DNA of 64,000 nucleotides. Origin: a virus. The notes below the pieces were generated by a model. That model was not told where the DNA came from. It ran no database searches and saw only the letters and a program-made list of their open reading frames with translations. This document shows positions 13,501 to 62,638 of this stretch, piece by piece. A program made the translations under genes and the position numbers. The DNA lies in IMG/VR virus record IMGVR_UViG_3300021963_000035, positions 64,001 to 128,000 of that record; one strand, written 5' to 3'. Each line of letters starts with the position of its first letter. Within the stretch, counting starts at the first letter, position 1.

Positions 13501-16500
13501 GTGGTACACCGGTTAACTTTACCGGTGCAACTACAGCTGGAGCTGGTATTTTCTTTGTCACAAGAATTGAAGAAAACTTATATTCTAACAGCTTCTGGTT
13601 ACTCAATCACGGTGGCACATCAACTAACCAAGCAGTGGGCGGAACTGGACAACAAGGCGGATATCCAACTGCATTAGACTATCCTGGTCCGTTATTTGAC
13701 TTTATCAGTGACGTTAACAACGTTCGTTATACTCGTGCTAAGATGCAGTTAACAGCACCTACCGCTGCTACAGGATTGACCAGTGGTAACACATATTACT
13801 GCGTTCCTGTAAACAATAATTGCTTTAAAGTGCAAGATTATGCAGCTACACAGTTACCAACAGGTAATAACACAGTTCAAATTACTGCAATTACCAGCAC
13901 AACGACCAGCCATGCATTTACCAGCAGATTAATTCAAAACATTACTGCAAACAGAATTATTGTTCCGTTTGAAAGTCAAAACCTGATCGAGAATGCTATT
14001 GTTCGTTATGAAAATCGAGGAACCAGTGATATTGTAGCTTACAACTTTACTGGTGTTATTCCTGGTTTGATCAACAATCAGCAGTATCTAATAAGAAATG
14101 CTAACAACGTTTATTATAATGTAGTTGGCCGTGTTGATGGCAATTATACTGCTGCTGCTACTTCTATTTTAGTGACTAGTACATCAGGTCTAGCCACAGG
14201 AGCAACAATTAGAATTGGTTCGGAAGACATGACCATTACTAATATTGCGTCTTTAACATTAACTGTTACAAGAGCAGTAAATGGAACAACCTCAGCGATT
14301 ATTTCAGATGGTGCTGTAATTAAACGTCGTTACGGTCACTTCCAATTGTATACGACCACACAGTTTGTACCTCGTTTAGTTAACGGTGGTGCAGCTGATA
14401 CTACTAGAAAGACTATTCTATTGGCCAACCACGGTTTGAAACCAGGCGAAACAATGGTTTTTGTTTCAACAACAACTGGTGCAGTTACAACTGGTGCAGG
14501 TACTATTACCCTAGCAGCAGGCGATCTGTACTATGCTATTGTTGAAGACGAAAACAACTTTGGTGTGGCGATTACAGAAGCATTGGCATATGCCAGCTTC
14601 CCAATCAACATCACTACGGCAGGTACTGCGTGGGTATTCCTACAATACTATGCAGCAGCACCGTTGACTGGTTTAGCCAGCTCTGCTGTACAGCACAGAT
14701 TAGTTGATTGTTCAGCTACAGGAGCATTCGACGGTGGGTATACAGCATCGGCTGTAACTAACACAACGATCCAATTGCCAACAGGTCTAAGTGTTCCGCA
14801 ACGTGTATTAACATTTGATCCTAACTTTGTTCTAAATCAACAAAACGGTGAATTCTATATTCAAAACCACGGATTTCAAACAGGAACAGCAGTCACTTAT
14901 AGCAAAGGTTCATTAACATTTGCAATCGGCGAAGGATCAGGACAACCGTATACAGGTTATATCTCATTAACCAACAATACAACATATTATGTTGTTCGTA
15001 GAAGCTTAAACGCTTTCTGTTTAGCAACTACCAAGGCCAATGCTATCGCAGGTACCGTATTGAAGGGATTTAGTGGTCCTGGTTCTGCTCCAACTGGTGG
15101 TGTAGGTCATACATTTACTACTAGCCAGATGTGGGGTGAATCACTTGCTCCAGGTCTAGCAACTATCGTTGCACGTGACTTGACATTTAACGGGTCTAGC
15201 TCAACTGTTATTCAGGCTTCAACTGATCGTGTTGTAGTTAATAATCACGGTTTGGTAACTGGCGACCGTGTCATTTATCAGGTTTGGGCCAACGGCGGTC
15301 AGGTAAACGGTTTAGTAAACGGAAGAACATATTTCGTTTCTAACACAGTGTTTACCGGCGCAACAGCTGGTGGTGCTGCATCAGGACAAACAGCTAACCA
15401 GTTCTCATTACACAACACATGGGTAGGTGCTTATACCAATACAGACCGTGTTGACATCTTAGGTGTTGGTCGTGGTTCTGTGCATACATTAAAAGTATCT
15501 AACCCAACATTAGTTGGTAATTCATATAGAGGTGAATGGAACTCGGCAGACGGTTACAGATTCGGTGATATCGTACTGTTTAGAAATGCCTACTATATGT
15601 CATTAACTGGTATTACTGGTAACCTAAATTCAGGTAACCAGCCAGTGGTAACTGCAACCGGTTTGTATTCAACAGATTGGCAACCAGTACTGAATTTGCC
15701 TGCTTATCAGACCAAGTTCTTAACAACTTATCGTTCTGGTGACACTATCAAGTTATCAAATACAGCATTGCGTAGAACATTACCGTTCGATGCTAGCACA
15801 GCGGTTAGTGCCGCAGATAACACCATTACTATCACTAACCACAGATTAAACACTGGTGATTGTGTAATATATCGTGTAGACGGATTCGGTACTAACTTTG
15901 CAGGAACTGGTGCTAACCATTACTACTCAGGTAGCACAGGTAACAGTCTAGCAGCGGTTCCAGTTCCCGGATTGAATCCAAACCAGGTTTACTATGTAAA
16001 CGTAGGTGATGCTAACGTATTCACATTGTTTAACAGTTATGCAGAATGTATTCGAGGCGGTTCTGGTGATAGCGGTAACTTTGCTTACGCTGTAAACATT
16101 ACTGGTACAGGTACAGGTACTCAACATAAATTTGAGATCTTAGAAAATAGTACATTGGAATTGCAGGTTATTTCTGTAACTAGCGATACCGAAATGTTAG
16201 TTTCCGATCCATATACTGCTAAGGCTGTTACATTTAACCCGGCAGAAACTACAACAACTGTAGCTGGTTTAACATATCAGGTTGTTAACTTGGCCAACGA
16301 TGAAATCTTGATTCCAAATCACGGTTTTCTAACAGGTACAAAAGTAGTTTATACATTTGGACCTATTGGTTCAGGTTCTGCAATCGGTGGTTTAACAGAT
16401 GGTACTGCTTATTATGTAATCAAAGTTAACGATGATTTAATTAAATTAGCAACCACCGATCAAAACTCAGTTGCAGGTATTCCTCAAGACTTAACCACTA

Positions 16501-19226
16501 TTGGTTCTGGTGTGACACACTACTTGATCGCTACTACGATCTGTTCTAGCTCATTGGTTAGATTTGCAAGTGCAGGTACAGTTTCTAACAACAGTATATC
16601 AACAAGAAACTTCTATACCAGCCAGGTAGATGGAAACATCCGTAACGGTGTTTTAACTGGATTGCCAATTGTTCAAGAAACACAATTGTTACCACGCCCA
16701 GACTGCCAGAACGTACACAGACCGTTTGACGGCGGTGTTGAAATCAACGCTAGCAAGAGTCCAAACGTAAGTATCGTCCGTCAGACACGTAAGTATTTCC
16801 GTTATCAATCTGGTAAGGGCTTACAATGGTCAACTGGTTTGAACTTCAGCCCTAGCATTGACGTTAGCCGTATCACACACGATGGCACTACATTTGCCAC
16901 AGTTGTGACACGTCGTCCGCATCAACTATCAGTAGGATCAAAGATACAACTTGATCAGGTTGGCGCACAGAGCGAATACGAAGCAGTAAAATGCGAACGT
17001 GATTTAGGCTATTTCATTGACGGTGTTGGATACGACATTACCTTAGGTACAAATTATAATGCTGTATTCTTAGGTCTAGCTGATTACAACAGCCAAGAAA
17101 TTACTAATCCAGTTATTACTAACATCCAGAAAACTGGTGCTTATCTGTCTGCTTATACTATCGCAGATTCTACAGCTATTACTAGAAACAATGCTTTCTG
17201 GGCAGAAGTTGTAGACATCTTAAACAATGGTAGATCGGCTGCTGATACTGTAACATATACCAATCCAGGTACTGCTACAACATCACAGATTGCTGCTAAA
17301 GATAAGATAGTAGCTAACAGAACATTTATCACAGCAGAAATCAATGCTTGGGTAGCATTAACATACCCAGCATACGATCATGATGTTGCTAAGTGTACAC
17401 GTGACGTTAACTATGTTATCAATGCATATGCATATGATATTCTATATGGCGGAAACAGTGCTAGCTACGATGTCAGCAAATTCTTTAACTACTACTTCAC
17501 AGATGGTAGAACAGGAACTAGTTCAGATCACAGAGCACAAACTGTAGCAGCCTATAATAGACTAAAAACTATCCTTGGTCAAATCGTTCAAGGTATTGCA
17601 ATTACTAAGACTACTACAGGTTCTATGCCTAACACTGAATCACAAGTGACATCGGGCAACAATGCTACATCTGGTGATGCTGCTATAGTACAAGGTTTCG
17701 TAGATATTACTATCAGCCAAGTAAATGCAGTTTCACAGACCGCAGCTAACGTAGCACTAGCAGCCTTTACTAGAACTGCACCTAGCGTAACCTGGGCAGC
17801 AGCTGGTTTACAAACTGCTAAGACAGCTATCGATGCTGCCAAGACATCATTGATTGCTAACGTTGTTAGAGGAACTCCTTATACAGTACCAGACAACTCA
17901 AGTCCATTCTTTGTAGTGGCTAGTGTTGTAGATGACTTTACTATCACATATAGAACAAATGGTATTCCTGCAAATACAACACCGTACGGGTTCCCAAGAA
18001 TGTTTGTGTACACCTGGAACGATGCTAAAGTACGTGCAGGTGTATTTGACGATCAAAACGGTATGTTCTATGAATATGATGGTAAAGTGTTATACTGTGT
18101 CAAGAGATTCAGTACACAACAGTTGGGTGGTACATTATCAGTAGTGAAAGGTAGTAACACTGTTACAGGTGTTGACACTAACTTCACTGGTCAATTGACA
18201 CCTGGTAGCTTTATTGTTATCAGAGGTATGAGCTACAAGGTAACCCGTGTAGCCAGCAACACCAGTATTGATATTACTCCTGCTTACAGAGGATCAACAA
18301 AGGCTAGAGTACAAGCAACTAAAACCATTGATGAGAAATACGCTCAATATGAATGGAGTGTTGACAAGTGTGATGGAACAGGACGTCATGGATTTAATCT
18401 AGACATCCACAAGATGCAGATGGCCTACATCGACTTTAGCTGGTACGGTGCTGGTAAGATCCGTTTTGGATTTAAAGGCATCGACGGTCACGTGATTTAT
18501 GTACACGAGATCATCAACAATAACCATCAAACTGAAGCTTATCTACGTTCTGGTAACATACCAGCACGTTATGAGATCAGAAACGGTGATGCCCCAACTT
18601 ATGCACCAAGCTTGTATCACTGGGGTGCTTCGATGATCATGGACGGTGTGTTCGAAGACGACAAAGCTTACTTGTTCTCAGTAGCTTCTGGTTCAGGCGG
18701 CTCAGACACTATTAGTATTCCAACTAGCCGTGTAGGAACACCTTGTCCTGTATTGAGTCTACGTCTAGCACCTAGCGTTGACACAAACTTAGTAGGAGCA
18801 CTAGGAGAAAGAGATCTTATTAACCGAATGATTCTAGTGTTACAACAGGTTGGTATCGTTATTACATACGCAACAGCTGGTAAGACAACACCTGCTTCTA
18901 TTAGACTTGTTCTAAACGGTAGCTTGTCACAACAAGCATACTTCTCGTCCTACGGTGCTCCATCGTTGACACAGATCATTAAACATACTGGTCAAGTTAA
19001 CGATACTATCACAGGCGGATTGACGATTTATGAATTCCGTTGTACAGGTAACAACAGTACTGCACAAGATTTGAGCTCTCTAGCAGAATTGGGTAACAGT
19101 ATTACAGGTGGCGATTATGTATATCCAAACGGACCAGACATTATTACAATGTGCGTGGTTCCGACAGAAACTACAGATCCAACACTGGTTACTGCACGTA
19201 TTACCTGGACAGAATCTCAGGCTTAA
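10554..19226 (+). CDS. Giant modular virion protein (2890 aa), tail fibre/appendage
   Basis: S/T/G-rich; repeated I.NHG..TG..V.Y modules; core shared with 20484..25976 (IDxDFEYGLQ, RPxDGGV, RYQSGKG, FDDQNG, FSWYGAG, RLAPSV, NGPD, W.E.QA). Late box at 10529-10534. Confidence 0.8.
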
Positions 19227-20483: not shown

Positions 20484-23400
20484 ATGGCAAAAAGAAAAAT
20501 AGACAGTTACATATTTGCACCAGGAACATCGACAAATTCTAATGCATACCCTAATGCTTATGCTTTATTATTAGCAAACAGAAGTTATCTCCTAGCAGAG
20601 TCAACTGCCTACATACAGAATCAAATTTCTAATAATGTTCCTGCTTTTGTAGGATTTAATTATGATCCAGTGAAGTGCCAAAGAGACACTGGATATGTGA
20701 TTGATGCATATCTTAATGATCTACGTTACGGCGGTAACAGGCAGACTAGAGAAGTAGTATCTTATTATTGGGATGGTACTACTCCTCAAATCGGAGGCAC
20801 AAGAGCACCAGAGATAGCAGTTTACAATTGGTTAATTGGTGTTATAAACACATACATATTAACCAAAACTCTAGCACCTTCATATCAATTTTCTGTAGTA
20901 CAGACAACAACAGGTTCGGCAGCTGAGGGCGGAGCTTCTGCAAGACTTACGACACTGAATACTATCACAGTTAATGTTATTACTAATGGACTATCTTCTT
21001 TGCCTGCATTGGTAAATGGTGTAGGAACATTAAAGATCCCAGAAAAGATCGATCTCGAAAATTTCTTATTGATCTCTAATGTAACAAAAAATGCTATCAT
21101 GTATGATTTCACTGATCCTACAGTGGGAATTACGGTTGATATCAAAGCATCTAAAGATGAAAATTTTCCTACTGCTTTACAAGGTAACGATGGATTTACA
21201 GTTGTACATTTTGTAACAGATACTTCGACCTATTCTTCGGACGACGAGATACAGATATTTGTAGAGAATAAAGAACAGATCACAAGACCTTGGAATTTTG
21301 GTACAGATGCGATCGAACGTATGCGTGTAGCTGCTCCACAGGCTATGATTGACGCTGACTTTGAATATGGATTACAGCCGACTAAGTGGCAGGCTATTAC
21401 ATCAAACAGAGGATATCCATCTACATTTGAAATTCCAGGTAGCGATTTAATTGTTACCGATGTTAGAACAGACGCTTCAACAGGATCTAATAATATTGGA
21501 CCTAGTCTAATCACCGTTACAACCAGCTCCCCTCACTTTTTGATTGCGGGCCAACCTATTACCATTAAAGCATTAGCATCAACTGTTTTAGGTTTTAGTC
21601 GAGCTGAAGGTACTTTTATTGTTAACACAGTACCTACTGCAACAAGCTTTACATATTATGCAAAATCTAAAGTAGGAACAGTTGATCAGGAAGTTGTAGC
21701 AACATCATACACTCAGCTAAGACGTGCAGGTTTTTACACTGGTGCTAGCTTAGGATCGGCTGCATTTACGGTTGATAGTCCCGGCAGCAGTGGTACAATC
21801 ACTGCCAGTTTAAATGTTCCATCGGGAGCCAGCATTATTCCGTTTACTGGCACAGCGCCTCCCGTTAATGCTCCTATTACTTCGGCAACGAATATTACTG
21901 CTGGTACTCAGTTTACATCTATATTAGGAAGTGGCGGCACAGTAACTACTAAAACTATCGCAGAAAATAGCCAGATAGGTGATAATAGTATTACAATAGA
22001 TAATGTTACCAATGTTCAAACTGGTCTAGTGGTTAACAACGGAACAGGATCTTCCGCAGCAGTTACTAGCGTGGTGGGAAATGTTGTGACACTTAATTCA
22101 CCGATCACTGCATTTAGACAAGGTATTAGCGGAACATATACTGGAATTTCTGGTACCAGCATAGGTACTCTAGGAACAGGATTAAGCCTTAACTTGTATA
22201 ATTCTGCTGGAACGTATTCACTATTAACTTTTAATAATCAAGGAACAGGTTATTCTGTTAACGATGTATTGGAGATTTCCGGTACTTCTGTTAATGTGTA
22301 TGAAACTACTCAGTTGTTAATGCACTTTGACGGCGGTAATAATTCTACAGTATTCTTAGATGAGACTGGAAAAACTTTTACATTATTCGGAAATGCTGTA
22401 GTATCTACTACTCAGAGCGTTTTTGGGGGTTCTAGTTTTAGAGTTAATAATACTCTAGGAGCAACACCGGCCGCCGGTTATATTACTACTGCTACAACAA
22501 ATAAATTACGATTAGGTATTAGTGATTACACCATTGAATTTAGAATAAGAATAACTACCGGTGGAAATGATCAGGCTATTTTAGATTTTAGATCACAGGC
22601 AGTCGATAACGCTTTATTAATTGGATTAACAAATTCTAACGCGGTATATGTATATTCTAACGGTGCAATAGTTGCCCAAGGTGGCTCTGCTCTAGCCCTA
22701 AATACTTGGTATCATGTAGCAGTAAGCAGAGCCAACGGTGACATTACTATTGCGCTTAATGGAGCTAACGACAATTTAGCTGGCCCATATACTGATACAA
22801 ACAATTATAATATAGATGTTCCTTTAAGAATTGGTGCCGATTACAGCGGACAGTATGGTGCCGCAGCATTCGTAGACGAAGTCAGAATTACCTTAGGTGT
22901 AACTAGATATCCAACATATCCGTTTACAATTCCAGCAAGTGCGTTTGGCCCAGATTCAGTTGGTACTACCAGCAATGGTGCTATCATCAGAGTAACCGGA
23001 ATAGGCCCATCTGGAGAAGTTGCTACTATACAGACATTGAATACTGGCACCGCACCAGGAAATAGTGGTCAAGAATACTATTACCTAAGTCCAACCCCGA
23101 TACCTGGTCAAGGTTCAGGTGCGGTCTTTACAGTTAGAAGACAATCAGGAACATATTCTGTAGTAGCAGTAACTACTCCAGGTACTAATTATCAATCAAA
23201 CAATAAAATACGAGTGTTAGGTACTGCTCTAGGAGGAGCAACCCCGGCGAACGATTTAGTCATTGAAGTTGGAGTAGTTCTAGGTACAGGAGTTTCTACT
23301 GCTAGTGCATTTAGCGGAACAGCATCAACCACAGGCACTTCTTTAGCATTTTTATCGTCGGTGTCATTGAATGCCGTAACAACTGGTGCTATTACCAGTG

Positions 23401-25976
23401 GGGCAACGATCACTTACGGTTCTCTAGCAAGAATACTAGTAAGTCTAGGATCAGCTCACGGGTTATTGCCAGGAAACGCTATTTCTACAGTTATTACATC
23501 CGCCGGAACAAATCATCAATTAGCAGCCGGACCTTTCTTTGTTGAAGAAGTGCCTAATCCTCAGACATTGAAATATAGTTGTAGAACTACCGGTACAGTT
23601 CAGGCTGGTTTAACTGGAATACTTTATCCTAGATCAGACGGATTCTTCGTACATAGACCTTACGACGGTGGTGTTCAATTAGGTACCGGTGGCCCACAAC
23701 ACGGCGCACAGGCGATTCGTATGAGTAAAAAATACATACGTTACCAGTCTGGTAAGGGAGCTATGTATAACACTGGTGCATTATTTGCTCCGAGCTATGA
23801 TCTAAGATCCGCAACGGCTAGTGGATTAACAATAGGAAGTACTATAACATTTGTAGTAGATGATAATGATCACGGATTACAAGTTGGCGCTATAATTAAT
23901 GTAACAGGAATAGTGAGTTTAGGATATAATGGAACATATACAGTTTCAGAAATTATAGATGAAAGAACTTTTAGAGTTATTACTTCTACAACCTTAAGAA
24001 CTACTAGCGCAGTGTTGGGAGCTCAAAGTCAGATTTCTTGTAAATTCTGGCACGGATCAGTTGTTCGTTCTGGACCGTTTGACGATCAAAATGGTATTTT
24101 CTTTGAATATGACGGAACCCAGCTAGCAGTTGTTAAAAGGTCTAGCACTTTCCAGTTAGCAGGTACTGCTTCTATAAATGTAGATTCGAACTCATTGATC
24201 GGAACCAATACTCGTTTTCTAGATCAACTAAAAGTTGGTGATAGAATCGTTATTAAAGGAATGACTCACGTAGTTAGCCAGGTTAATAGTCAGACCAACA
24301 TAGCGGTTACTCCTGATTACAGGGGAACATCAAATGCTGTTAATGCCAAAATCTGTCTAACACAAGATCTTAAGATCCCTCAGAGTCAATGGAATCTTGA
24401 TCGTTGTGACGGAACTGGTCCTAGCAGATATGTCGTAGATGTTACAAAAATGCAGATGATCGGCATACAGTTTAGCTGGTATGGTGCTGGTTTTATTGAT
24501 TGGATGTTTAGAGGTCCAAAAGGAGACTACGTATTCTGCCATAGACTAAAAGGCAACAACGTTAATACTGAAGCATATATGCGTACTGGTAACTTGCCTG
24601 TACGTTATGAAGTTCTTAATGAAGGTGCTAGAACTAGATTAGCCAGTGCAATGACTAACAGTCAAACTACTATGTCATTAGAAGATGGATCATTCTTCCC
24701 TAATGTTGGAACTGTGTATTGTGAAAACGAATTGATTAGTTATAGTGCTAAATCTGGAAATACACTTACAGGGTTAGTTAGATCGGCTAGCTTAACTAAC
24801 TTTGCAGCAGGTGCTCAAAGATCTTATACAGCAGGTCCGGCTGCTACTCACGCTGTAAATTCGGGAGTTATTTTAGCATCAGTTACTAACAGTCCACTGA
24901 TTAGCCACTGGGGTAGTGCTTACCTAATTGACGGTGGATTTGATAGCGATCGTGGATATCTGTTTAACTATCAGTTAACATCTTTCAGTGCTACAACCGC
25001 TAAACAGTGTGCATTCCTTATTAGGTTAGCTCCTAGTGTTTCTAATGCAGTGCCGGGAGATTTAGGTGAACGTGAATTACTTAATCGTTCTCAGTTATTG
25101 CTAAAATCAATTGAGGTTATTGGCGGTACTAGCGGCCAGACAATTGTTGTTGAAGGTGTATTAAATCCACAAAATTACCCAACTAACAGTGCGGTATTTA
25201 CAGGTTCAATCAGCGGAACAACATTAACTGTAACAGCAATGAACAGTGGTGTTATCGTTGTAGGTCAAACATTAACTGGTGGCGGCAGCCCTTCTATTAC
25301 CCCAACATTGACAATAACAGCATTGGGTACTGGATCGGGTGGAGTCGGAACATATACTGTTTCGTCTAGCCAAACAGTTGGTATTGGAACAATATTTGCA
25401 AGTCCATCAACTGTAAACTGGTTTGCCCTGAACAACGCAGCGCAAGGTGGTCTACCGTCGTTCTGTCAAATCGCATTGGGATCTGATACAAGTTTTGAAG
25501 GTGCTGGAACTACTGTTACCGCAGCATTAACGAGTAACTTGCAAAGTGGTAGAACTACAGCTCAGTTCTCTAATGCATCGGTGGCAGCTGTACAGGTTGG
25601 TTGGACAGCAACATCGGCTGCAAGCATACCATCTGGTACTGCGGTAACTAGAGTTCAGATCGATACTCCAACTTCGGGCACCACATCTATCACACTTAGC
25701 AAAGCGGCAACTGGCACCATAACATCGACTACAAACTTTTCATTTAGTGCTCCGGGATATGCGAACCCAGGTGAACAGGTATTTGCGTTCGCTGCTAACA
25801 CAGGTGACCGTCAGATTCTAGAATTATCAGATTTGAAAGAATTAACTAACTCTGCGGTTGGTGGTAGAGGAGCGTTCCCGAATGGTCCAGACGTATTGGC
25901 TATTAATGCTTTCGTCACTAGCGGTGCAGCAAACACTGTGTCGTTGTTGCTACGTTGGTCAGAAGCTCAAGCTTGA
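20484..25976 (+). CDS. Large modular virion protein (1830 aa) with a LamG/ConA-like domain; paralog of 10554..19226
   Basis: Shares core motifs with the 2890-aa protein. LLMHFDG...DYTIEF...WYHVAVSR...VDEVRIT (about 22310-22920) is a LamG-like lectin fold. Confidence 0.8.
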   Translation: MAKRKIDSYIFAPGTSTNSNAYPNAYALLLANRSYLLAESTAYIQNQISNNVPAFVGFNYDPVKCQRDTGYVIDAYLNDLRYGGNRQTREVVSYYWDGTTPQIGGTRAPEIAVYNWLIGVINTYILTKTLAPSYQFSVVQTTTGSAAEGGASARLTTLNTITVNVITNGLSSLPALVNGVGTLKIPEKIDLENFLLISNVTKNAIMYDFTDPTVGITVDIKASKDENFPTALQGNDGFTVVHFVTDTSTYSSDDEIQIFVENKEQITRPWNFGTDAIERMRVAAPQAMIDADFEYGLQPTKWQAITSNRGYPSTFEIPGSDLIVTDVRTDASTGSNNIGPSLITVTTSSPHFLIAGQPITIKALASTVLGFSRAEGTFIVNTVPTATSFTYYAKSKVGTVDQEVVATSYTQLRRAGFYTGASLGSAAFTVDSPGSSGTITASLNVPSGASIIPFTGTAPPVNAPITSATNITAGTQFTSILGSGGTVTTKTIAENSQIGDNSITIDNVTNVQTGLVVNNGTGSSAAVTSVVGNVVTLNSPITAFRQGISGTYTGISGTSIGTLGTGLSLNLYNSAGTYSLLTFNNQGTGYSVNDVLEISGTSVNVYETTQLLMHFDGGNNSTVFLDETGKTFTLFGNAVVSTTQSVFGGSSFRVNNTLGATPAAGYITTATTNKLRLGISDYTIEFRIRITTGGNDQAILDFRSQAVDNALLIGLTNSNAVYVYSNGAIVAQGGSALALNTWYHVAVSRANGDITIALNGANDNLAGPYTDTNNYNIDVPLRIGADYSGQYGAAAFVDEVRITLGVTRYPTYPFTIPASAFGPDSVGTTSNGAIIRVTGIGPSGEVATIQTLNTGTAPGNSGQEYYYLSPTPIPGQGSGAVFTVRRQSGTYSVVAVTTPGTNYQSNNKIRVLGTALGGATPANDLVIEVGVVLGTGVSTASAFSGTASTTGTSLAFLSSVSLNAVTTGAITSGATITYGSLARILVSLGSAHGLLPGNAISTVITSAGTNHQLAAGPFFVEEVPNPQTLKYSCRTTGTVQAGLTGILYPRSDGFFVHRPYDGGVQLGTGGPQHGAQAIRMSKKYIRYQSGKGAMYNTGALFAPSYDLRSATASGLTIGSTITFVVDDNDHGLQVGAIINVTGIVSLGYNGTYTVSEIIDERTFRVITSTTLRTTSAVLGAQSQISCKFWHGSVVRSGPFDDQNGIFFEYDGTQLAVVKRSSTFQLAGTASINVDSNSLIGTNTRFLDQLKVGDRIVIKGMTHVVSQVNSQTNIAVTPDYRGTSNAVNAKICLTQDLKIPQSQWNLDRCDGTGPSRYVVDVTKMQMIGIQFSWYGAGFIDWMFRGPKGDYVFCHRLKGNNVNTEAYMRTGNLPVRYEVLNEGARTRLASAMTNSQTTMSLEDGSFFPNVGTVYCENELISYSAKSGNTLTGLVRSASLTNFAAGAQRSYTAGPAATHAVNSGVILASVTNSPLISHWGSAYLIDGGFDSDRGYLFNYQLTSFSATTAKQCAFLIRLAPSVSNAVPGDLGERELLNRSQLLLKSIEVIGGTSGQTIVVEGVLNPQNYPTNSAVFTGSISGTTLTVTAMNSGVIVVGQTLTGGGSPSITPTLTITALGTGSGGVGTYTVSSSQTVGIGTIFASPSTVNWFALNNAAQGGLPSFCQIALGSDTSFEGAGTTVTAALTSNLQSGRTTAQFSNASVAAVQVGWTATSAASIPSGTAVTRVQIDTPTSGTTSITLSKAATGTITSTTNFSFSAPGYANPGEQVFAFAANTGDRQILELSDLKELTNSAVGGRGAFPNGPDVLAINAFVTSGAANTVSLLLRWSEAQA

Positions 25977-55066: not shown

Positions 55067-56263
55067 ATGAGAAATTCTGCCTACATCGAAGATATCTTTT
55101 TAGACTTTGCTCTGCTAACAATGACTGGGGCTGTAAACATACAGCCTCAAGATTCGTCACCTGTTAGTAGTTTTGAAAATGCTATAGTCCAATCTAAGAA
55201 ATTAACGCAAGCACAGGCCAATTACATTTTAAAATTATTGACAAAATATAAATTTTCTGCGTTTCGTGCAGGATTAGATTATGACCAACATCTAAAAAAT
55301 CCACAATGGAAAACCCCGTTTAGAGTATTGGACACTGCCAAGCGAATTTCTGTGGTAGAAACAGTCGATGGTGTTCAAATTTTAATAAAATTTCCATACA
55401 ATCTTAAAGAGACATTTGACAAGGCATTCCCAGACCTTTCATCATCTTGGGACTCAGATGCCGGTGTTAGAAAGATAGATGTCAATGATTGCAATGTTGT
55501 AGCACTAGCTGAATTTTGCCTCGAAAATGGCATAGAAGTTGACCAAACTTTTTCAGATTTACTATTACAGATTGAAGAAATTTGGAATCAAGAAAAAAAT
55601 ATTATTCCGCAATCTAAAATTTTAAATGATCAGGTTGTACTGATTAATGCTGATGAATATTGTCAAACATACTTTGATGAGCGTAAAAAAGATAAGGTAA
55701 ATTTTGACCTATTTTTGGCAAAATCTATGGGATTTTTACTCAGTGATATATCGGCACCGTCAAACACATTTGAGAAGATAGCGACCAGTCCGACAAATAT
55801 TTTCTGGGTAAAAGAAAATAAAACATTTTTTGATATCTACAAAAATTTAGAAGATAGTAAGATTGTATTTTTATTAGATCGTAACTGTGACTACTGCGAA
55901 GAGGCAAAAAAATTCGTAATTTCTGCGATGGAAAACGGCGTAGACAAATCAGATATTCGTGTTTGTTTTAGGCTCGATACTGAAGAAGAAAGAAAAAGGA
56001 ATTTTAATAGTTGGGTCAAAGAGCAAGGTGTTAGTGGCGGTGTTGATGATGGTAAAATTTTCATATTTTTACATAAACCAGCTAAATGGTTGTTTTCTAA
56101 AAAGGTAGATGTTAAAATAATAGCTACAAATTCACTGTGGCCTAATACTACATTAGGCATTGTGAACTGGATCGAAAGTCATCCTTGTGCTGTTTACTTA
56201 GGGGATCATCGACCTTCACTAAAAACTAAAACAAAAAAGGAAAAAGGCGTTGTCGACTTGTAA
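55067..56263 (+). CDS. Hypothetical protein (398 aa) heading the helicase operon
   Basis: Long ORF with its own promoter, overlapping the helicase start; no motif recognised. Confidence 0.75.
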   Translation: MRNSAYIEDIFLDFALLTMTGAVNIQPQDSSPVSSFENAIVQSKKLTQAQANYILKLLTKYKFSAFRAGLDYDQHLKNPQWKTPFRVLDTAKRISVVETVDGVQILIKFPYNLKETFDKAFPDLSSSWDSDAGVRKIDVNDCNVVALAEFCLENGIEVDQTFSDLLLQIEEIWNQEKNIIPQSKILNDQVVLINADEYCQTYFDERKKDKVNFDLFLAKSMGFLLSDISAPSNTFEKIATSPTNIFWVKENKTFFDIYKNLEDSKIVFLLDRNCDYCEEAKKFVISAMENGVDKSDIRVCFRLDTEEERKRNFNSWVKEQGVSGGVDDGKIFIFLHKPAKWLFSKKVDVKIIATNSLWPNTTLGIVNWIESHPCAVYLGDHRPSLKTKTKKEKGVVDL

Positions 56264-57707
56264 ATTAATCATTAAAGATGAAGTAAACATCAAAGCTGAA
56301 GGACTTGATTTAGAAACTAGGAGAAAACTGGTCAATAAATTTAAGTATACAGTCCCTTGGGCTAGACATCAGCCTTCATACAAACTAGGAAGATGGGATG
56401 GCACAGTAAGTTACTTTGGTCTAGGCGGAAACGGTTACTGTTCTCAACTGAATGAGATCGTCGAAATCATAACATCCAGTGGTTATGAAATAGATGTTGA
56501 AGATCTCCGAACACCATTTGATCTTTCGTTTAACGAGATACTGCCTACCTATTGGGCCGACCGTGGCAAGGTATGGCCAGAAGGTCATAGATTTGCCGGT
56601 CAGCCTATTGTGTTACGTGATGACCAAACTGAAGTTGTTAATACTTTCTTAAAAAATCCACAATCATTGCAAGAAGTCGCTACTGGTGCAGGCAAAACTA
56701 TTATGACTGCAACATTGGCACATATCTGTGAAAAGTTCGGACGTACAATCATTATTGTCCCCAATAAGGACTTAGTAACACAGACAGAAGAAGATTTTGT
56801 TAACGTAGACTTAGATGTAGGTGTTTATTACGGTGATAGAAAAATGCTGAATAAAACACACACAATCTGTACCTGGCAAAGTCTAAACATATTAGATAAG
56901 AAATCATTCGACGATGATGATGCGTTAACACTGGCAGAGTTTTTAGATGGGGTACAGACTGTAATAGTAGACGAAGTACACATGGCCAAGGCAGATGTGC
57001 TGAAAAGATTATTAACACAGAACATTTGTAATGCACCTATAAGATGGGGCCTCACTGGTACTATTCCTAAAGAAGATTGGGAGTTTCAATCTATTCGTGC
57101 TTCACTGGGAGAAGTTGTTGGTCAAGTCACTGCTCATCAATTACAACAGCAAGGAATACTGGCACAATGCCATGTTAATATACTACAAACTGTAGAGATA
57201 AAAGTTTTTAGAACATATCACGAAGAATTGAAATATTTGGTCACTGATGAAGATCGAGTCAAATGGATCTCCAGTCTAATTAAGACTGTCGCAGAGAGTG
57301 GAAACACTCTTGTGCTGATAGATCGATTAGAAACAGGAAATATGTTAATGGACATGATCGATGAAGCAGTGTTTATCAGCGGTGCTGTAAAATCAACAAA
57401 ACGAAAGGAAAAATATCGTGAAGTTGCGACGAGTGATGACAAGATTATTGTGGCGACTTATGGTGTGGCCGCTGTGGGTATTAATATCCCTAGGATTTTT
57501 AATCTGGTTCTTGTGGAGCCCGGAAAAAGCTTTACTAGGGTTATACAATCAATTGGGCGAGGTATTAGAAAAGCGGACGACAAAGACTTCGTCCAGATCT
57601 GGGACCTAACAGGAGGTACAAAATATGCTAAGAAACACCTCACTGAAAGAAAAAAATTCTACAAGGATGCCCAATATCCTTTTAGTATAACAAAGGTAAC
57701 TATATGA
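56250..57707 (+). CDS. uvsW: SF2 helicase, UvsW-like
   Basis: LRDDQ, ATGAGKT, IVPN..LV.Q, VDEVH, GLTGT, ATYGVAAVGINIP, QSIGRGIR. Confidence 0.92.
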   Translation: MSTCKLIIKDEVNIKAEGLDLETRRKLVNKFKYTVPWARHQPSYKLGRWDGTVSYFGLGGNGYCSQLNEIVEIITSSGYEIDVEDLRTPFDLSFNEILPTYWADRGKVWPEGHRFAGQPIVLRDDQTEVVNTFLKNPQSLQEVATGAGKTIMTATLAHICEKFGRTIIIVPNKDLVTQTEEDFVNVDLDVGVYYGDRKMLNKTHTICTWQSLNILDKKSFDDDDALTLAEFLDGVQTVIVDEVHMAKADVLKRLLTQNICNAPIRWGLTGTIPKEDWEFQSIRASLGEVVGQVTAHQLQQQGILAQCHVNILQTVEIKVFRTYHEELKYLVTDEDRVKWISSLIKTVAESGNTLVLIDRLETGNMLMDMIDEAVFISGAVKSTKRKEKYREVATSDDKIIVATYGVAAVGINIPRIFNLVLVEPGKSFTRVIQSIGRGIRKADDKDFVQIWDLTGGTKYAKKHLTERKKFYKDAQYPFSITKVTI

Positions 57708-58501: not shown

Positions 58502-58962
58502 AATTAACAGAGATACTGGCAGCAGTTGATACTGACCAAAAAGAAATATGGGGCTTACTTGATGCACAACAACAAAAGGCATTAAAGAAAGACCTATGGA
58601 ATTTAAATAGATATATCAGTAGCGCAAAAAGTCCTAAGAGAGAAGTACAAGAACACTTTGTTTTATTAGTAAATGAGTTTTACAACCGCCATTGGAATGA
58701 CATCAAAGACCATCCAGGCTTACAATGGAAGTTGTTGTGTATGTGCAGTTACGAAACTAAAAAAGTTATGTTTCACGAATGGATCAAACTAGTTCGTAAG
58801 GCAGAAGGTAGTTCGAAAAAAGCCAAGTTCTTAATGCAACTGTATCCCAACATGAAAATCGACGAAGTCGAAATGTTGGCAAAAATGACTAGCGATAAAG
58901 AAATGAAAGAACTGGCTAAAGATCACGGATTAGATGATAAGCAAATTAAAGAATTTCTATAA
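58486..58962 (+). CDS. Possible clamp-loader small subunit (gp62-like)
   Basis: W.LNRYIS....VNE..N......HP.LQW.L......FH.W.K pattern resembles T4-like gp62 homologs; replication context. Confidence 0.45.
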   Translation: MSENLKLTEILAAVDTDQKEIWGLLDAQQQKALKKDLWNLNRYISSAKSPKREVQEHFVLLVNEFYNRHWNDIKDHPGLQWKLLCMCSYETKKVMFHEWIKLVRKAEGSSKKAKFLMQLYPNMKIDEVEMLAKMTSDKEMKELAKDHGLDDKQIKEFL

Positions 58963-59636
58963 TGTACAAATGTGCATATTGTAATAAAGACTTTGCCAAA
59001 GAAAAGACATTGGCAGTACATATCTGTGAGCAGAAAAGAAGACACTTGAGTAAAACAGAAAAGCATGTACAGGCAGGCTTACTCACGTATCAAAAATTCT
59101 TCCAGTTTGCACAGAAAAGTTCAAAGTCCAAAACATTTGATGATTTTGCAAGTAGTCCTTATTACACAGCTTTTGTAAAATTTGGTAGTTTTCTTGTAAA
59201 CACTAATCCAGTATATCCTGAAAGATTTATTGAATTTGTAATCAAGTCGGGTGTTAAACTAGATCATTGGTGTAGTGATGACTTATATGGGTTATACGTT
59301 ACTGAATTAGTAAAACAAGAACCAGCCGACGGTGCTGTACAAAGAACCATCAAAACTATGATAGAATGGGCAGATGAAAAGAAAGCAGTTTGGGAGCATT
59401 ATTTTTTGTATGTTAATTTAAATAGATTAACACACGATATAAAAGAAGGACTAGTAAGTCCTTGGCTAATTTTAAATTTAGAATCAGGAAAAACAGCATT
59501 GCAAAAAATGAACGATGAGCAATTAGAAATCATAGGCACTATAATTGATCCTCCGTTCTGGCAACGAAAATTTAAAAATTATCCAGCAGATGTAGAGCTA
59601 ATTAAGGATGTTATCCGAGAGGCAAATATTCAATGA
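58962..59636 (+). CDS. Zinc-finger protein (C2H2/C2HC-type N-terminus)
   Basis: YKCAYCNKDFAKEKTLAVHIC matches Y-x-C-x2-C-x3-F-x5-L-x2-H. Confidence 0.75.
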   Translation: MYKCAYCNKDFAKEKTLAVHICEQKRRHLSKTEKHVQAGLLTYQKFFQFAQKSSKSKTFDDFASSPYYTAFVKFGSFLVNTNPVYPERFIEFVIKSGVKLDHWCSDDLYGLYVTELVKQEPADGAVQRTIKTMIEWADEKKAVWEHYFLYVNLNRLTHDIKEGLVSPWLILNLESGKTALQKMNDEQLEIIGTIIDPPFWQRKFKNYPADVELIKDVIREANIQ

Positions 59637-59866
59637 GTATTAAAAAACGTAGAGACGAAGAAGAACCAGAATTAGAAGAACTGGCAGAAAATGAAGATCA
59701 TATATCTAGAGATGATCTTGACATTGAGGTTGCACTTAGTGAGGAAGAGCCAGTTGTATATGTAAAATTTTCTGGATTTGAAGATCATGAAGATGCTGAA
59801 GAATACGCAGACTTTCTAGCCAGCACATTGCCTTTATTGTTATTTGAAACTACGAGATTGCAATAA
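59633..59866 (+). CDS. Small highly acidic protein
   Basis: 77 aa, E/D-rich, coupled to both neighbours. Confidence 0.65.
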   Translation: MSIKKRRDEEEPELEELAENEDHISRDDLDIEVALSEEEPVVYVKFSGFEDHEDAEEYADFLASTLPLLLFETTRLQ

Positions 59867-60444
59867 TGCCAGACATTGATATCGACTTTCCTGATCGACA
59901 AGCAGCCTTGAGATTGTTTAAACATTCTCAAGCCAGTCGATTGGAAAACGAAAAATTAGTTCCGCATGCAACCGGTGTATATTTTCATCAGGTTCCTATA
60001 AATGCAAGAACTAATCTATGTGCTGTGCCGTATGATCGGGCAGAGGATCAAGGATTTTTTAAAGTAGATTTTTTGAATGTTGGAGTTTACAAAGGTGTAA
60101 GAGATGAAGCACATCTCATTCAACTAATGGAGACTGAACCGTTATGGGATCTATTGGAACAAGACGATTTCACAAATTTACTATTCCACGTAAATGGTCA
60201 TGGCTCATTGATGAGACAAATGAAACCACAGAGTATAGAACAGTTGGCAATGTGTCTCGCTTTGATCCGCCCAGGAAAGAGGTACCTAGTAGGGAAGACC
60301 TGGAACGAGATTGGGATGGAGATTTGGACGAAACCAGAGAATGGTGAATACTATTTTAAGAAGGCACACGCTGTAGCTTATGCAACTTCCATAGTGGTGC
60401 AGATAAATTTAATTTGTGAACAAATTAGCTACGGATATAGTTAA
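59866..60444 (+). CDS. Minimal DnaE-like (C-family DNA polymerase palm) protein, 192 aa
   Basis: PDIDIDF, HATGV, GFFKVDFL, KP.SIEQLA..LALIRPG, Y.FKKAHAVAYA: DnaE motifs in the canonical order. Confidence 0.88.
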   Translation: MPDIDIDFPDRQAALRLFKHSQASRLENEKLVPHATGVYFHQVPINARTNLCAVPYDRAEDQGFFKVDFLNVGVYKGVRDEAHLIQLMETEPLWDLLEQDDFTNLLFHVNGHGSLMRQMKPQSIEQLAMCLALIRPGKRYLVGKTWNEIGMEIWTKPENGEYYFKKAHAVAYATSIVVQINLICEQISYGYS

Positions 60445-60812
60445 GATGGTCGTCTAACTAATACTATCGATTTTCTCTTAATACGTTTTGTTATTATCTG
60501 ATTTAGGCTAACACAAGGCCCTAGCATTAATTTAACATCTTTAGTTGAAAAATTCCTAACTGCGTATCTAAACGGATTTATCTCTTTTGCTAGGAAAATA
60601 TTGATAGGTATTTGTCTGTTAGATTCCCACCACCACGCTTCGCCTAGCTCTAAAAATCTAGTTTTTTCATCATCAGATTTAAGTGCTTTGTAATCGTACA
60701 TGCTAGTAACAGCAGCATCCTGATTTATGATAATACCCACGTATTCCTGATCAACGTAGTTTATTACGCTTATAAATGGAAAATTTTGTTGTAAGTTTTC
60801 TGTTATTCTCAT
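60441..60812 (-). CDS. Hypothetical protein
   Basis: Likely start MRITENLQ at 60812; FPFI....Y...EY.GII.N.D, WWWESNR.IPINIFL. Minus-strand TATAAATA at 60857-60864. Confidence 0.7.
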   Translation of the reverse strand: MRITENLQQNFPFISVINYVDQEYVGIIINQDAAVTSMYDYKALKSDDEKTRFLELGEAWWWESNRQIPINIFLAKEINPFRYAVRNFSTKDVKLMLGPCVSLNQIITKRIKRKSIVLVRRPS

Positions 60813-60838
60813 CTTATAAATATACTTAAAGGACCAAT

Positions 60839-61615
60839 ATGCAATTAAATCCAAGTTATTTATACTCAAACAAAATGGACGTCTTTAGCACACTTGGTAC
60901 CTGGACTACTGAGAGGTATCGAAAAGTGTATCAACGTAACTTTAAAGTGTATCGTGGCGTCGACAACCGCTTAGATTTCCAAATACGCAACTCGGATCAA
61001 AAACCACAGGATATGACTGGGTATTCTGTGATATTTAATCTTTTTACAAGAGAGAGTCAAGAATTGGTGACTGTTAGGACTTGTGAAGTACAAAGTTATA
61101 GCGGTGGAAAATTCTATGTGATTCTTAGCGAAGCAGACGTTCAAAATTTAGACACAGGGTATTATACTTTTAGTCTACATGCATTAGACTCAAATGGATT
61201 AAAAACAGCATTGTATGGCGACAGCCAATACGGTGCAACAGGAACTATTGATATTGTTGGCAGCACATATGCAGAACCAATTGATAGTTTATCTGTATCT
61301 ACATTTTCTTTATACGAATCTATCGTGCCTCCAGAAACTTACAGAGTAAGCGAAGTGTTAGATGCAAAACCACAATTTAATTCTAATGCTGCACTGCATA
61401 CGTTTGCTATGTACGGTAAGAACTTTGTTGGTGTTGCGACTGTGCAAGGAAGTTTAGATCCTTACAATTCAATCACAAATTGGATAGATTTAGCAACTAT
61501 TAATTTTAATTCAGATCCTATAAAATATCAAAATATCGAAGGTGTATGGAGTTATTTTAGAATCAAGCTAGATGTAACTTCGGGATCACTTGACAAAGTA
61601 TTGTATAGATATTAA
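60839..61615 (+). CDS. Putative late structural protein (Ig-like / BppU-like beta domains)
   Basis: TATAAATA at 60815-60822 plus SD; YRGVDN.L.F...N.DQKP, all-beta pattern, LDKVLYR C-terminus. Confidence 0.6.
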   Translation: MQLNPSYLYSNKMDVFSTLGTWTTERYRKVYQRNFKVYRGVDNRLDFQIRNSDQKPQDMTGYSVIFNLFTRESQELVTVRTCEVQSYSGGKFYVILSEADVQNLDTGYYTFSLHALDSNGLKTALYGDSQYGATGTIDIVGSTYAEPIDSLSVSTFSLYESIVPPETYRVSEVLDAKPQFNSNAALHTFAMYGKNFVGVATVQGSLDPYNSITNWIDLATINFNSDPIKYQNIEGVWSYFRIKLDVTSGSLDKVLYRY

Positions 61616-61624: not shown

Positions 61625-62638
61625 ATGGCCTTAGTCATAGACATCTTACGAGATCTTATCCCATATAAGCGAAAAACTACTCCTAGTGGTTGGACTAGTT
61701 TTGATGCCCCTTGCTGTCATCACAGAGGTCACAATCGTGACACTAAGATGAGGGCTGGCATAATGCTGAACAATGAATTTGTATATCACTGCTTCAATTG
61801 CGGATTTGCAACAGGTTGGAGTCCAGGTAACTCGATATCTCCAAAACTTAGAGATCTATGCAAATGGTTAGGTGCATCAGACGACGATGTTAAACGATTA
61901 ATTTTTGAAGCACTGAAAACTGAAGGCGATAATTACGTTGCTAAAGAACGAGAAATATCAGTAGACTTTCCGCCAAAAGATTTACCAGAATCATCTATGC
62001 CAATATCTAAATGGCTAGAAACGTATGACGACATGACGTCTGAATTTTTAAATCCTGTAATAGAATATCTGATCAATAGAGGTTGTAATCCATTAAGTAA
62101 TCATTTCTATTGGTCACCTGCAGAAGGTTATAGTGATCGTGTGATTATCCCTTTTAAGTATCAAGGAAGGATAGTAGGTAGTACAGGAAGAAAGATCACT
62201 AAAGGTAAACCAAAATATCTTTCTGATCAACATCCTAATTTCGTCTTTAATGTAGATGAACAATTAGATGACAGCAAATACGTATTTGTTGTTGAAGGTC
62301 CGTTTGATGCCTTAGCAATTGGAGGAGTTGCCCTATTAAGTAATAATATATCAGAGCAACAGGCTAAGATAATTAATAGGCTACACAAACATGTGATCGT
62401 CATACCTGATCAGGATAAAGCTGGTCTAGATGTAATAGACAAGGCTAGAGATCTTGGTTGGTCTGTAGCGTTTCCTACTTGGGATAGCGATGTTAAAGAT
62501 TGTTCCGATGCTGTTAATCGATACGGAAAATTGTTTGTAATAATGGATCTTATCAAGACTGCAACAGAAGGATCTATAAAAATAAATCTCGCCAAAGGTC
62601 ATATGAAAAGAAGGCTACAAAATGCGCAAACTAATTAG
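61625..62638 (+). CDS. DNA primase (Zn ribbon + TOPRIM), T4 gp61-like
   Basis: PCC...YHCFNCG, YL..RG, RVIIP, GR, KYL, VVEGPFDA, IPDQDKAG, KD..DA. Confidence 0.92.
   Translation: MALVIDILRDLIPYKRKTTPSGWTSFDAPCCHHRGHNRDTKMRAGIMLNNEFVYHCFNCGFATGWSPGNSISPKLRDLCKWLGASDDDVKRLIFEALKTEGDNYVAKEREISVDFPPKDLPESSMPISKWLETYDDMTSEFLNPVIEYLINRGCNPLSNHFYWSPAEGYSDRVIIPFKYQGRIVGSTGRKITKGKPKYLSDQHPNFVFNVDEQLDDSKYVFVVEGPFDALAIGGVALLSNNISEQQAKIINRLHKHVIVIPDQDKAGLDVIDKARDLGWSVAFPTWDSDVKDCSDAVNRYGKLFVIMDLIKTATEGSIKINLAKGHMKRRLQNAQTN

Follow-up and report, generated by a model that had tools for sequence, protein, structure and literature searches.

A 192-residue DnaE-like protein of an uncultured jumbo phage clade is probably the C-terminal subunit of a split minimal DNA polymerase III alpha

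What can a protein do that carries the catalytic motifs of the bacterial replicase DnaE in only 192 residues, when cellular C-family polymerases are more than 1000 residues long? The question is raised by an open reading frame (ORF) at positions 59866..60444 on the plus strand of the window, which here denotes the whole analysed stretch of 64,000 nucleotides (positions 64,001 to 128,000) of the virus record IMGVR_UViG_3300021963_000035. A first-pass annotation made from the sequence had listed a series of DnaE motifs in this ORF, and these are indeed all found, in DnaE order: M-PDIDIDF at residues 1-8, HATGV at 34-38, GFFKVDFL at 63-70, KPQSIEQLAMCLALIRPG at 120-137 and YYFKKAHAVAYA at 162-173. 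The same annotation regarded the protein either as one subunit of a split and miniaturised Pol III-type enzyme or as a repurposed nucleotidyltransferase, and the first of these suggestions is supported by the presence of a complementary protein in relatives, by natural fusions and by a published family. Iyer et al. 2021 (Viruses 13:63, PMC7824862) reported that group 2.2 jumbo phages possess a minimal Pol III alpha made up of two proteins from distant genes, an N-terminal one that binds NTP and a C-terminal one that binds Mg2+ and template; it occurs beside a family B polymerase, and they suggested that it reflects the ancestral state of Pol III. The ORF of the window, referred to as the C-half in the following, is the C-terminal unit of this already described enzyme, and we put the probability that it serves as the C-terminal subunit of a split minimal DnaE-like nucleotidyltransferase of group 2.2 (RaK2/121Q/PA5oct/Atu_ph07-like) jumbo myoviruses at roughly 85%.

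The likeness to DnaE is not a matter of chance, since residues 3-186 of the C-half match positions 8-194 of the 197 in phrog_11778 ("DNA polymerase") with an E-value of 4e-65, and since the full-length DnaE profile phrog_405 is matched with an E-value of 5e-8 in colinear fashion at profile positions 442-453, 569-679 and 778-807. Plain sequence searches would nonetheless miss the relationship, because Pfam returns only a sub-threshold DNA_pol3_finger match (residues 109-138, 17.6 bits with a cut-off of 22) and the best hit of phmmer against the PDB sequences has an E-value of 0.7; PF07733 likewise gives no match to the ORF. In the phmmer alignment PDIDIDF falls on MPDIDIDF and YYFKKAH on DYAFNKSH of Mycobacterium tuberculosis DnaE1, and a profile alignment by hhalign places residues 54-138 on residues 541-642 of Escherichia coli alpha, from which it follows that K66-V-D68 (60061..60069) corresponds to K553-F-D555 with the third catalytic aspartate, and that the finger motif R135-P136-G137 (60268..60276) corresponds to R640-P641-G642 within FRPGP 638-642, the latter in accord with the DnaE1 alignment. 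In the PDIDIDF strand (59869..59889) D3 and D5 are the equivalents of the metal ligands D401 and D403 and D7 is that of D405, and F164-K-K-A-H168 (60355..60369), which aligns to DYAFNKSHA of DnaE1, is the equivalent of FNKSH 756-760; all of these elements lie on the plus strand. D401, D403 and D555 are metal ligands throughout the C family and D405 is an additional aspartate of the DnaE type (PMC3919608), and all four have an equivalent in the C-half. H168 furthermore occupies the position of H760, which is a proposed steric gate against ribonucleotides and reported to be invariant in Pol III alpha (PMC8485763). The residue beside it is alanine in the window's ORF and serine in the family consensus, and the corresponding S759A replacement is tolerated in E. 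coli (PMC8485763).

The structural comparison leads to the same assignment. An AlphaFold2 model of the C-half has a mean predicted local distance difference test (pLDDT) score of 95.9, Pol III alpha and PolC make up all of its top 18 Foldseek matches in the PDB, and VIA-align superimposes 182-188 of the 192 residues on these proteins with Z-scores of 9.1-9.6 and root-mean-square deviations (rmsd) of 3.4-4.0, while the next unrelated fold only reaches a Z-score of 3.1. Model residues 1-190 fall on residues 400-784 of E. coli alpha, 461-841 of Thermus aquaticus alpha, 419-811 of M. tuberculosis DnaE1 and 971-1296 of PolC. A stretch of 385 residues of E. coli alpha is thus covered by about 190 residues, and the match does not go past residue 784. 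The thumb, which by the 2006 domain limits attributed to Lamers and colleagues reportedly covers about residues 433-510 of E. coli alpha, is missing together with approximately half of the finger residues, and the PHP, HhH, clamp-binding and OB parts are absent. Neither a PHP, thumb, HhH or OB segment nor a GS (RGS) motif was found in the ORF or adjoining it, and the first-pass annotation had likewise stated that the PHP, RGS, clamp-binding and OB parts are absent. Its description of the protein as a polymerase reduced to its catalytic palm holds in so far as the match is to a C-family palm, but what is present is the second part of the palm and a shortened finger segment and not a complete palm.

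The C-half is furthermore both widespread and strongly conserved. Homologs with 39-52% identity over at least 95% of the length were found by tblastn in 96 phage records, some of them labelled "DnaE-like DNA polymerase III alpha" or "DNA polymerase" in GenBank, and among the 40 matches listed all are phages of the RaK2/121Q/GAP32/PA5oct/Atu_ph07/Phosso type, with record sizes of 284-490 kb for 38 of them and shorter Klebsiella phage records for the other two. A protein collection searched in the range of 105-336 residues holds 7,641 C-half clusters (E <= 1e-5), the best 120 of which are 191-205 residues long, and at least 551 stretches of the IMG/VR viral-contig collection match as well. The length is exactly 192 residues in 68 of 77 related loci, MPDIDIDF is 100% conserved in 78 close sequences, and in 91 diverse homologs reaching down to 30% identity the residues D3, D5, K66, D68 and P136 are invariant, while D7, H34, G37, R135, K165 and H168 are conserved to at least 90%. 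The ratio of nonsynonymous to synonymous substitution rates (dN/dS) has a median of 0.086 and ranges from 0.036 to 0.17 over 77 unsaturated pairs. The three metal-binding aspartates, K66 (K553), RPG and FKKxH are in other words kept under strong purifying selection, and the earlier impressions that the catalytic aspartates are intact and that the gene shows no decay are both borne out.

Where, then, is the remainder of the palm? Scanning phage Phosso with phrog_405 revealed another small frame, a 177-residue ORF that aligns to positions 362-436 of the DnaE profile and has the C-terminal end ...VWGVGRGSSVASYVLFLIGIHRVNSITYELDFDEFLN. Proteins of this kind, referred to as N-halves, are 155-177 residues long in the relatives, end in ...VWGVGRGSSVASYVLYLIGVHKVDS...EFF/EFL, carry a GVGRGSS motif and pass PF07733 with 43-46 bits (cut-off 23.9), and W118, G119-S125 and other positions are invariant among 28 sequences. 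They align to residues 272-394 of E. coli alpha, a stretch that begins with the first palm residue and stops immediately short of the PDxDxD strand. The first-pass annotation had envisaged a complementary small ORF with a GRGS..S....LG...DP motif, and this is what the relatives possess. N-halves of 155-168 residues are found in four of five large related IMG/VR records at 167-186 kb from the C-half, one of these four, a record of 364.5 kb rated 100% complete, has its C-half near 12 kb and its N-half near 192 kb, and the N-half is also present in Phosso and PA5oct; over all relatives and isolated phages examined the two genes are 31-224 kb apart. The N-half is at least as abundant as the C-half, with at least 7,984 N-half clusters among 8,000 candidates scored against 7,641 for the C-half, and with 107 phage records against 96, largely of the same jumbo-phage genera. 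At least eight of the 60 listed N-half matches are however to phages of Bacillus, Thomasclavelia or Alishewanella, 101-169 kb in size, which the C-half phage set does not include, and most of these are annotated as DNA polymerase III alpha. A family B polymerase (PolB, PF00136) was found as open frames of 890-1013 codons in all five relatives searched, including all four related records with an N-half. The relatives thus keep a gp43-like PolB, the B-family polymerase that T4-like phages normally use, and the mini-DnaE would not be its replacement. As a separate observation, the N-half locus (L090:890-1980 on the minus strand, L091:1348-2806 on the plus strand, and likewise L089, L092 and L098) has a conserved synteny of its own, with two structural-looking genes upstream and downstream a gene for about 114-130 residues, whose PA5oct counterpart is annotated "chaperonin", followed by one for about 120-130 residues; as a guess from sequence, the two downstream genes might be GroES-like and MazG-like.

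That the two halves belong together is suggested by nature itself, since there are single-chain forms that consist of an N-half followed, after a short linker, by a C-half. P0200 (375 residues) and P0269 (336 residues) were found by an unrestricted HMMER search and P0391 and P0392 (376 residues) by a further search. These fusions come from independent metagenome samples and occupy the syntenic slot of the C-half (fusion loci L093:1066-2193 and L099:519-1649, both on the plus strand), they are followed by a homolog of the convergent 142-residue neighbour of the window's gene (31% identity, E 2e-6), they pass PF07733, and their C-terminal 185 residues are 35-38% identical to the window's C-half. 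They are rare, four clusters as opposed to thousands of split ones. The model of P0200 has a pLDDT of 85.7 and matches Pol III alpha structures with Z-scores of 15-22 over 295-347 aligned residues, the next matches being Pol-beta-like nucleotidyltransferases with Z-scores of about 3-3.6. MAFFT misplaced the N-halves in alignments A3, A4 and A7, which combined fusions and both halves, and these were discarded and A6 used. When the window's C-half (alignment A1) was co-folded with the N-half of the relative G005 (alignment A2), the ipSAE was 0.90, the best of three controls giving 0.00; the ipSAE mark is reached by 58 of 80 solved complexes and by 2 of 110 mismatched pairs, counts that are only rough given that the alignments were our own. 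At least 79% of contacts are common to the runs, the pLDDT of the partner is at least 76, and the predicted interface packs the DxD strand (C-half residues 1-10) onto the WGVGRGSS strand and loop of the N-half (residues 114-128), with C-half residues 6-8 touching N-half residues 118-119. Both the co-fold and the natural fusions support the notion that the halves may assemble into one catalytic module.

We therefore favor a scheme in which the C-half would be inactive on its own and would probably pair with an N-terminal subunit of about 155-177 residues, equivalent to alpha 272-394, that contributes the GRGS nucleotide-binding loop. The WGV strand of the N-half (residues 118-120) would, again probably, pair with the DxD strand and so complete a Pol-beta-like palm. 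That the resulting heterodimer is a small, distributive DNA polymerase using deoxynucleoside triphosphates (dNTPs), with the steric-gate histidine kept, is a further step to which we give roughly even chances, and a role in gap filling, repair or primer extension beside a gp43-like family B replicase may equally prove right or wrong. An accessory enzyme rather than a replicase is indicated, because the relatives keep the gp43-like polymerase. Several points weigh against this scheme. The thumb, the clamp-binding part and the other DNA-binding domains are gone even from the enzyme made of both halves, and the stretch between RPG and FKKxH is only 26 residues long in the C-half as compared with about 113 (to FNKSH) in E. 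coli. The literature searched, which on the split enzyme comprised only the 2021 comparative paper and genome announcements, contained no biochemical or genetic test of a family member. The window's own N-half was moreover not found, as tblastn with the Phosso N-half gave nothing better than an E-value of 0.3 and a hidden Markov model built from 28 N-halves nothing better than about 1 in the window's record, and neither PF07733 nor PF00136 was found there, so that the partnership is drawn from relatives at 65-72% identity. A contig of 295,302 bp carries an identical C-half, but none of the 120 N-half homologs listed was on a contig of that length. The record is however a fragment of 148.5 kb judged to be 42% complete, which makes the absence of N-half and PolB uninformative, and with the halves 167-186 kb apart in related records the N-half would fall outside it. 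Finally, the co-fold measures likeness and not binding and was made with a partner from another phage, and since the two proteins are the halves of a split gene, its success may be a memory of the solved single-chain DnaE structures.

Of the other explanations the one to be taken most seriously, though still unlikely, is that the halves form an active nucleotidyltransferase which is not a templated DNA polymerase but catalyses untemplated addition to DNA or RNA ends, primer processing or the formation of a nucleotide-derived product. The loss of the DNA-holding thumb and of the clamp-binding, HhH and OB parts, together with the deletion of about half of the fingers, does leave room for a different nucleotidyl-transfer reaction, the next structural neighbours of the fused model are Pol-beta-like terminal transferases, poly(A) polymerases and CCA-adding enzymes, and the relatives, having a family B replicase, need no second one. 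However, selection has kept RPG and FKKxH, the motifs that in DnaE are turned towards the template and the incoming dNTP, H168 stands at the H760 position, the gene lies in a primase and helicase neighbourhood in every relative examined, and structural matches at a Z-score of about 3 reflect only the shared Pol-beta core. The steric-gate histidine, the template-facing finger motifs and the fixed genomic context hence lead us to favor a DNA polymerase. A role as a non-catalytic replisome or structural factor that keeps only the DnaE fold would agree with the loss of DNA-binding domains and with the fact that no member has a shown activity, but it is very improbable, since D3, D5, D68 and K66 never vary in homologs down to 30% identity, R, G and S are invariant in the N-half, and a purely structural role is not expected to give such invariance.

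Less probable still is the idea that the 192-residue protein works alone as a palm-only enzyme. All three metal-binding aspartates are present in it, it is confidently predicted to fold by itself and no N-half occurs in the 148.5-kb record; on the other hand it has neither a GS nucleotide-binding loop nor the palm's first part, the N-half is found in relatives with long contigs, fusions exist, the N-half is predicted to cover the surface around the DxD strand, and the record is incomplete. The least tenable notion is that of a recently broken remnant of a full-length dnaE, which the conservation data refute. The ORF is colinear with the DnaE motifs and starts exactly at PDxDxD, as a remnant might, but the 7,641 clusters in the size range, the constant length in 68 of 77 loci and a dN/dS of about 0.09 rule out a decaying fragment, there are no flanking DnaE fragments, and the synteny is kept from the uncultured clade to Phosso and PA5oct.

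The preferred reading, an accessory polymerase subunit, has its setting in a neighbourhood of replication genes, as had been noted from the outset, with a ResIII/DEAD helicase gene at 56250..57707 and a Toprim primase gene at 61625..62638 as flanking genes. The gene order is helicase, 168-residue, 95-residue, 158-residue, 224-residue and 77-residue ORFs, C-half, 142-residue ORF on the opposite strand, a 258-residue structural gene and primase, and it is kept in about 60-81 of 81 related loci. Every relative examined has primase and helicase genes around its C-half, and neither of the two halves is listed as a virion protein in PA5oct. The ATG of the C-half overlaps the TAA of a very acidic 77-residue ORF (59633..59866, plus strand) in the sequence TAATG, which confirms the coupling described earlier. 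This ORF is directly upstream in 65 of the 81 loci, has no match in Pfam or PHROG, is absent at the PA5oct locus and shows no detectable relation (E 3.2) to a 77-residue ORF upstream of the fused form; it might serve as a clade-specific partner or act as a DNA mimic. The 224-residue neighbour (58962..59636, plus strand, phrog_11058), with an N-terminal C2H2-like motif (CAYC...H....C), is syntenic in all 81 loci and precedes the C-half either directly or with only the small acidic ORF in between. It has a 39% identical homolog in Phosso, a 235-residue gene holds the same position in PA5oct, and its Atlas matches are to viral C2H2-type clusters only; it is a candidate DNA-binding partner. The convergent 142-residue gene (60441..60869, minus strand, phrog_11637), the 3' end of which overlaps the stop codon of the C-half, is found in 77 of the 81 loci, with 50% identity in Phosso and a 132-residue gene at the same position in PA5oct.

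The 77-, 158-, 224- and 142-residue neighbours were also considered as the missing half and rejected, as they have no Pfam match, no DnaE-like PHROG match and no GS motif, and the proposal that the adjacent ORFs be co-folded as partners has lost its basis with the finding that the partner gene lies far away in the relatives and isolates examined. A six-frame scan of the window's record for G[RK]GS gave one match in a real long ORF, a GVGRGS near position 15468 of the window, which lies within a 2890-residue ORF in an unrelated context and was taken as chance. This ORF (10554-19226, plus strand) and an 1830-residue one (20484-25976, plus strand) have similar N-termini (MAKR.I..Y.F.P) and presumably encode virion or fibre proteins.

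The system as such is thus not new, the outcome that the first-pass annotation called unusual having been published in 2021 (PMC7824862) and GenBank already annotating the protein as DNA polymerase III alpha. What is new here is a divergent member from an uncultured clade, the map of what is structurally kept and lost, the selection statistics and the rare natural fusions, since the published account (PMC7824862) treats the split form only and not single-chain fusions. The search for a gp43-like polymerase, which had also been proposed, came out negative for PF00136 in the 148.5-kb fragment and positive in five of five relatives, and an appropriate annotation for the window's ORF would accordingly be C-terminal subunit of a split minimal Pol III alpha, accessory to a family B replicase outside the fragment. 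If the reading is correct, a C-family catalytic core can shrink to about 350 residues and even be divided between two genes, and if it also represents the ancestral state of Pol III, as suggested by Iyer et al., it bears on the origin of the bacterial replicase. The family is very common, with thousands of metagenomic clusters and about 96 isolated jumbo phages including the therapy candidates PA5oct and RaK2, and the natural fusions would be convenient single-chain constructs for biochemical and structural studies. More tentatively, and with the odds rather against it, the heterodimer of about 350 residues or its 336-376-residue fusion may be the smallest working C-family core, a thumbless one that would obtain its DNA binding from phage partners such as the adjacent C2H2-type protein, the primase or the clamp, or it may perform a specialised reaction of which the gp43-like replicase is incapable, such as primer hand-off, the filling of gaps in modified DNA or the tailing of ends.

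Among known systems, the group 2.2 phages RaK2, 121Q, GAP32, PA5oct, Atu_ph07 and Phosso are the closest, since these T4-like jumbo myoviruses likewise have a C-terminal unit of about 190 residues that starts at DxD and share the local synteny of upstream gene, C-half, convergent small gene, structural gene and primase; their N-terminal GS-motif unit from a distant gene and the family B polymerase beside the two have counterparts in the related metagenomic records. The window's C-half is only 39-52% identical to the copies of the isolated phages and stems from a large uncultured metagenomic clade, which unlike the isolate PA5oct has the additional acidic ORF coupled by overlap upstream. The single-chain fusions occupy the same slot and have a homologous convergent gene, but carry both halves in one polypeptide. 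Bacterial DnaE, as seen in the structures of E. coli (2HNH), T. aquaticus (3E0D) and M. tuberculosis DnaE1 (5LEW), has the same second-palm and finger-base fold and the same order of D401, D403, D405, K553 and D555 equivalents and RPG and FNKSH-like motifs. It is however about 1160 residues long as opposed to 192, or about 350 with the partner, and its palm is not split over two polypeptides; unlike DnaE, the C-half furthermore lacks the PHP, thumb, HhH, OB and tau-binding domains and the clamp-binding motif and fails the Pfam gathering scores, and unlike the cellular C-family replicases in general it does not hold a complete palm and a GS nucleotide-binding loop in one chain. PolC of Firmicutes (3F2B) is an equally good structural match (Z 9.6, 185 residues, rmsd 3.4), but the third aspartate of PDIDIDF (D7) follows the pattern of DnaE and not that of PolC (PMC3919608), and the inserted exonuclease and the N-terminal domains of PolC are likewise missing from the C-half.

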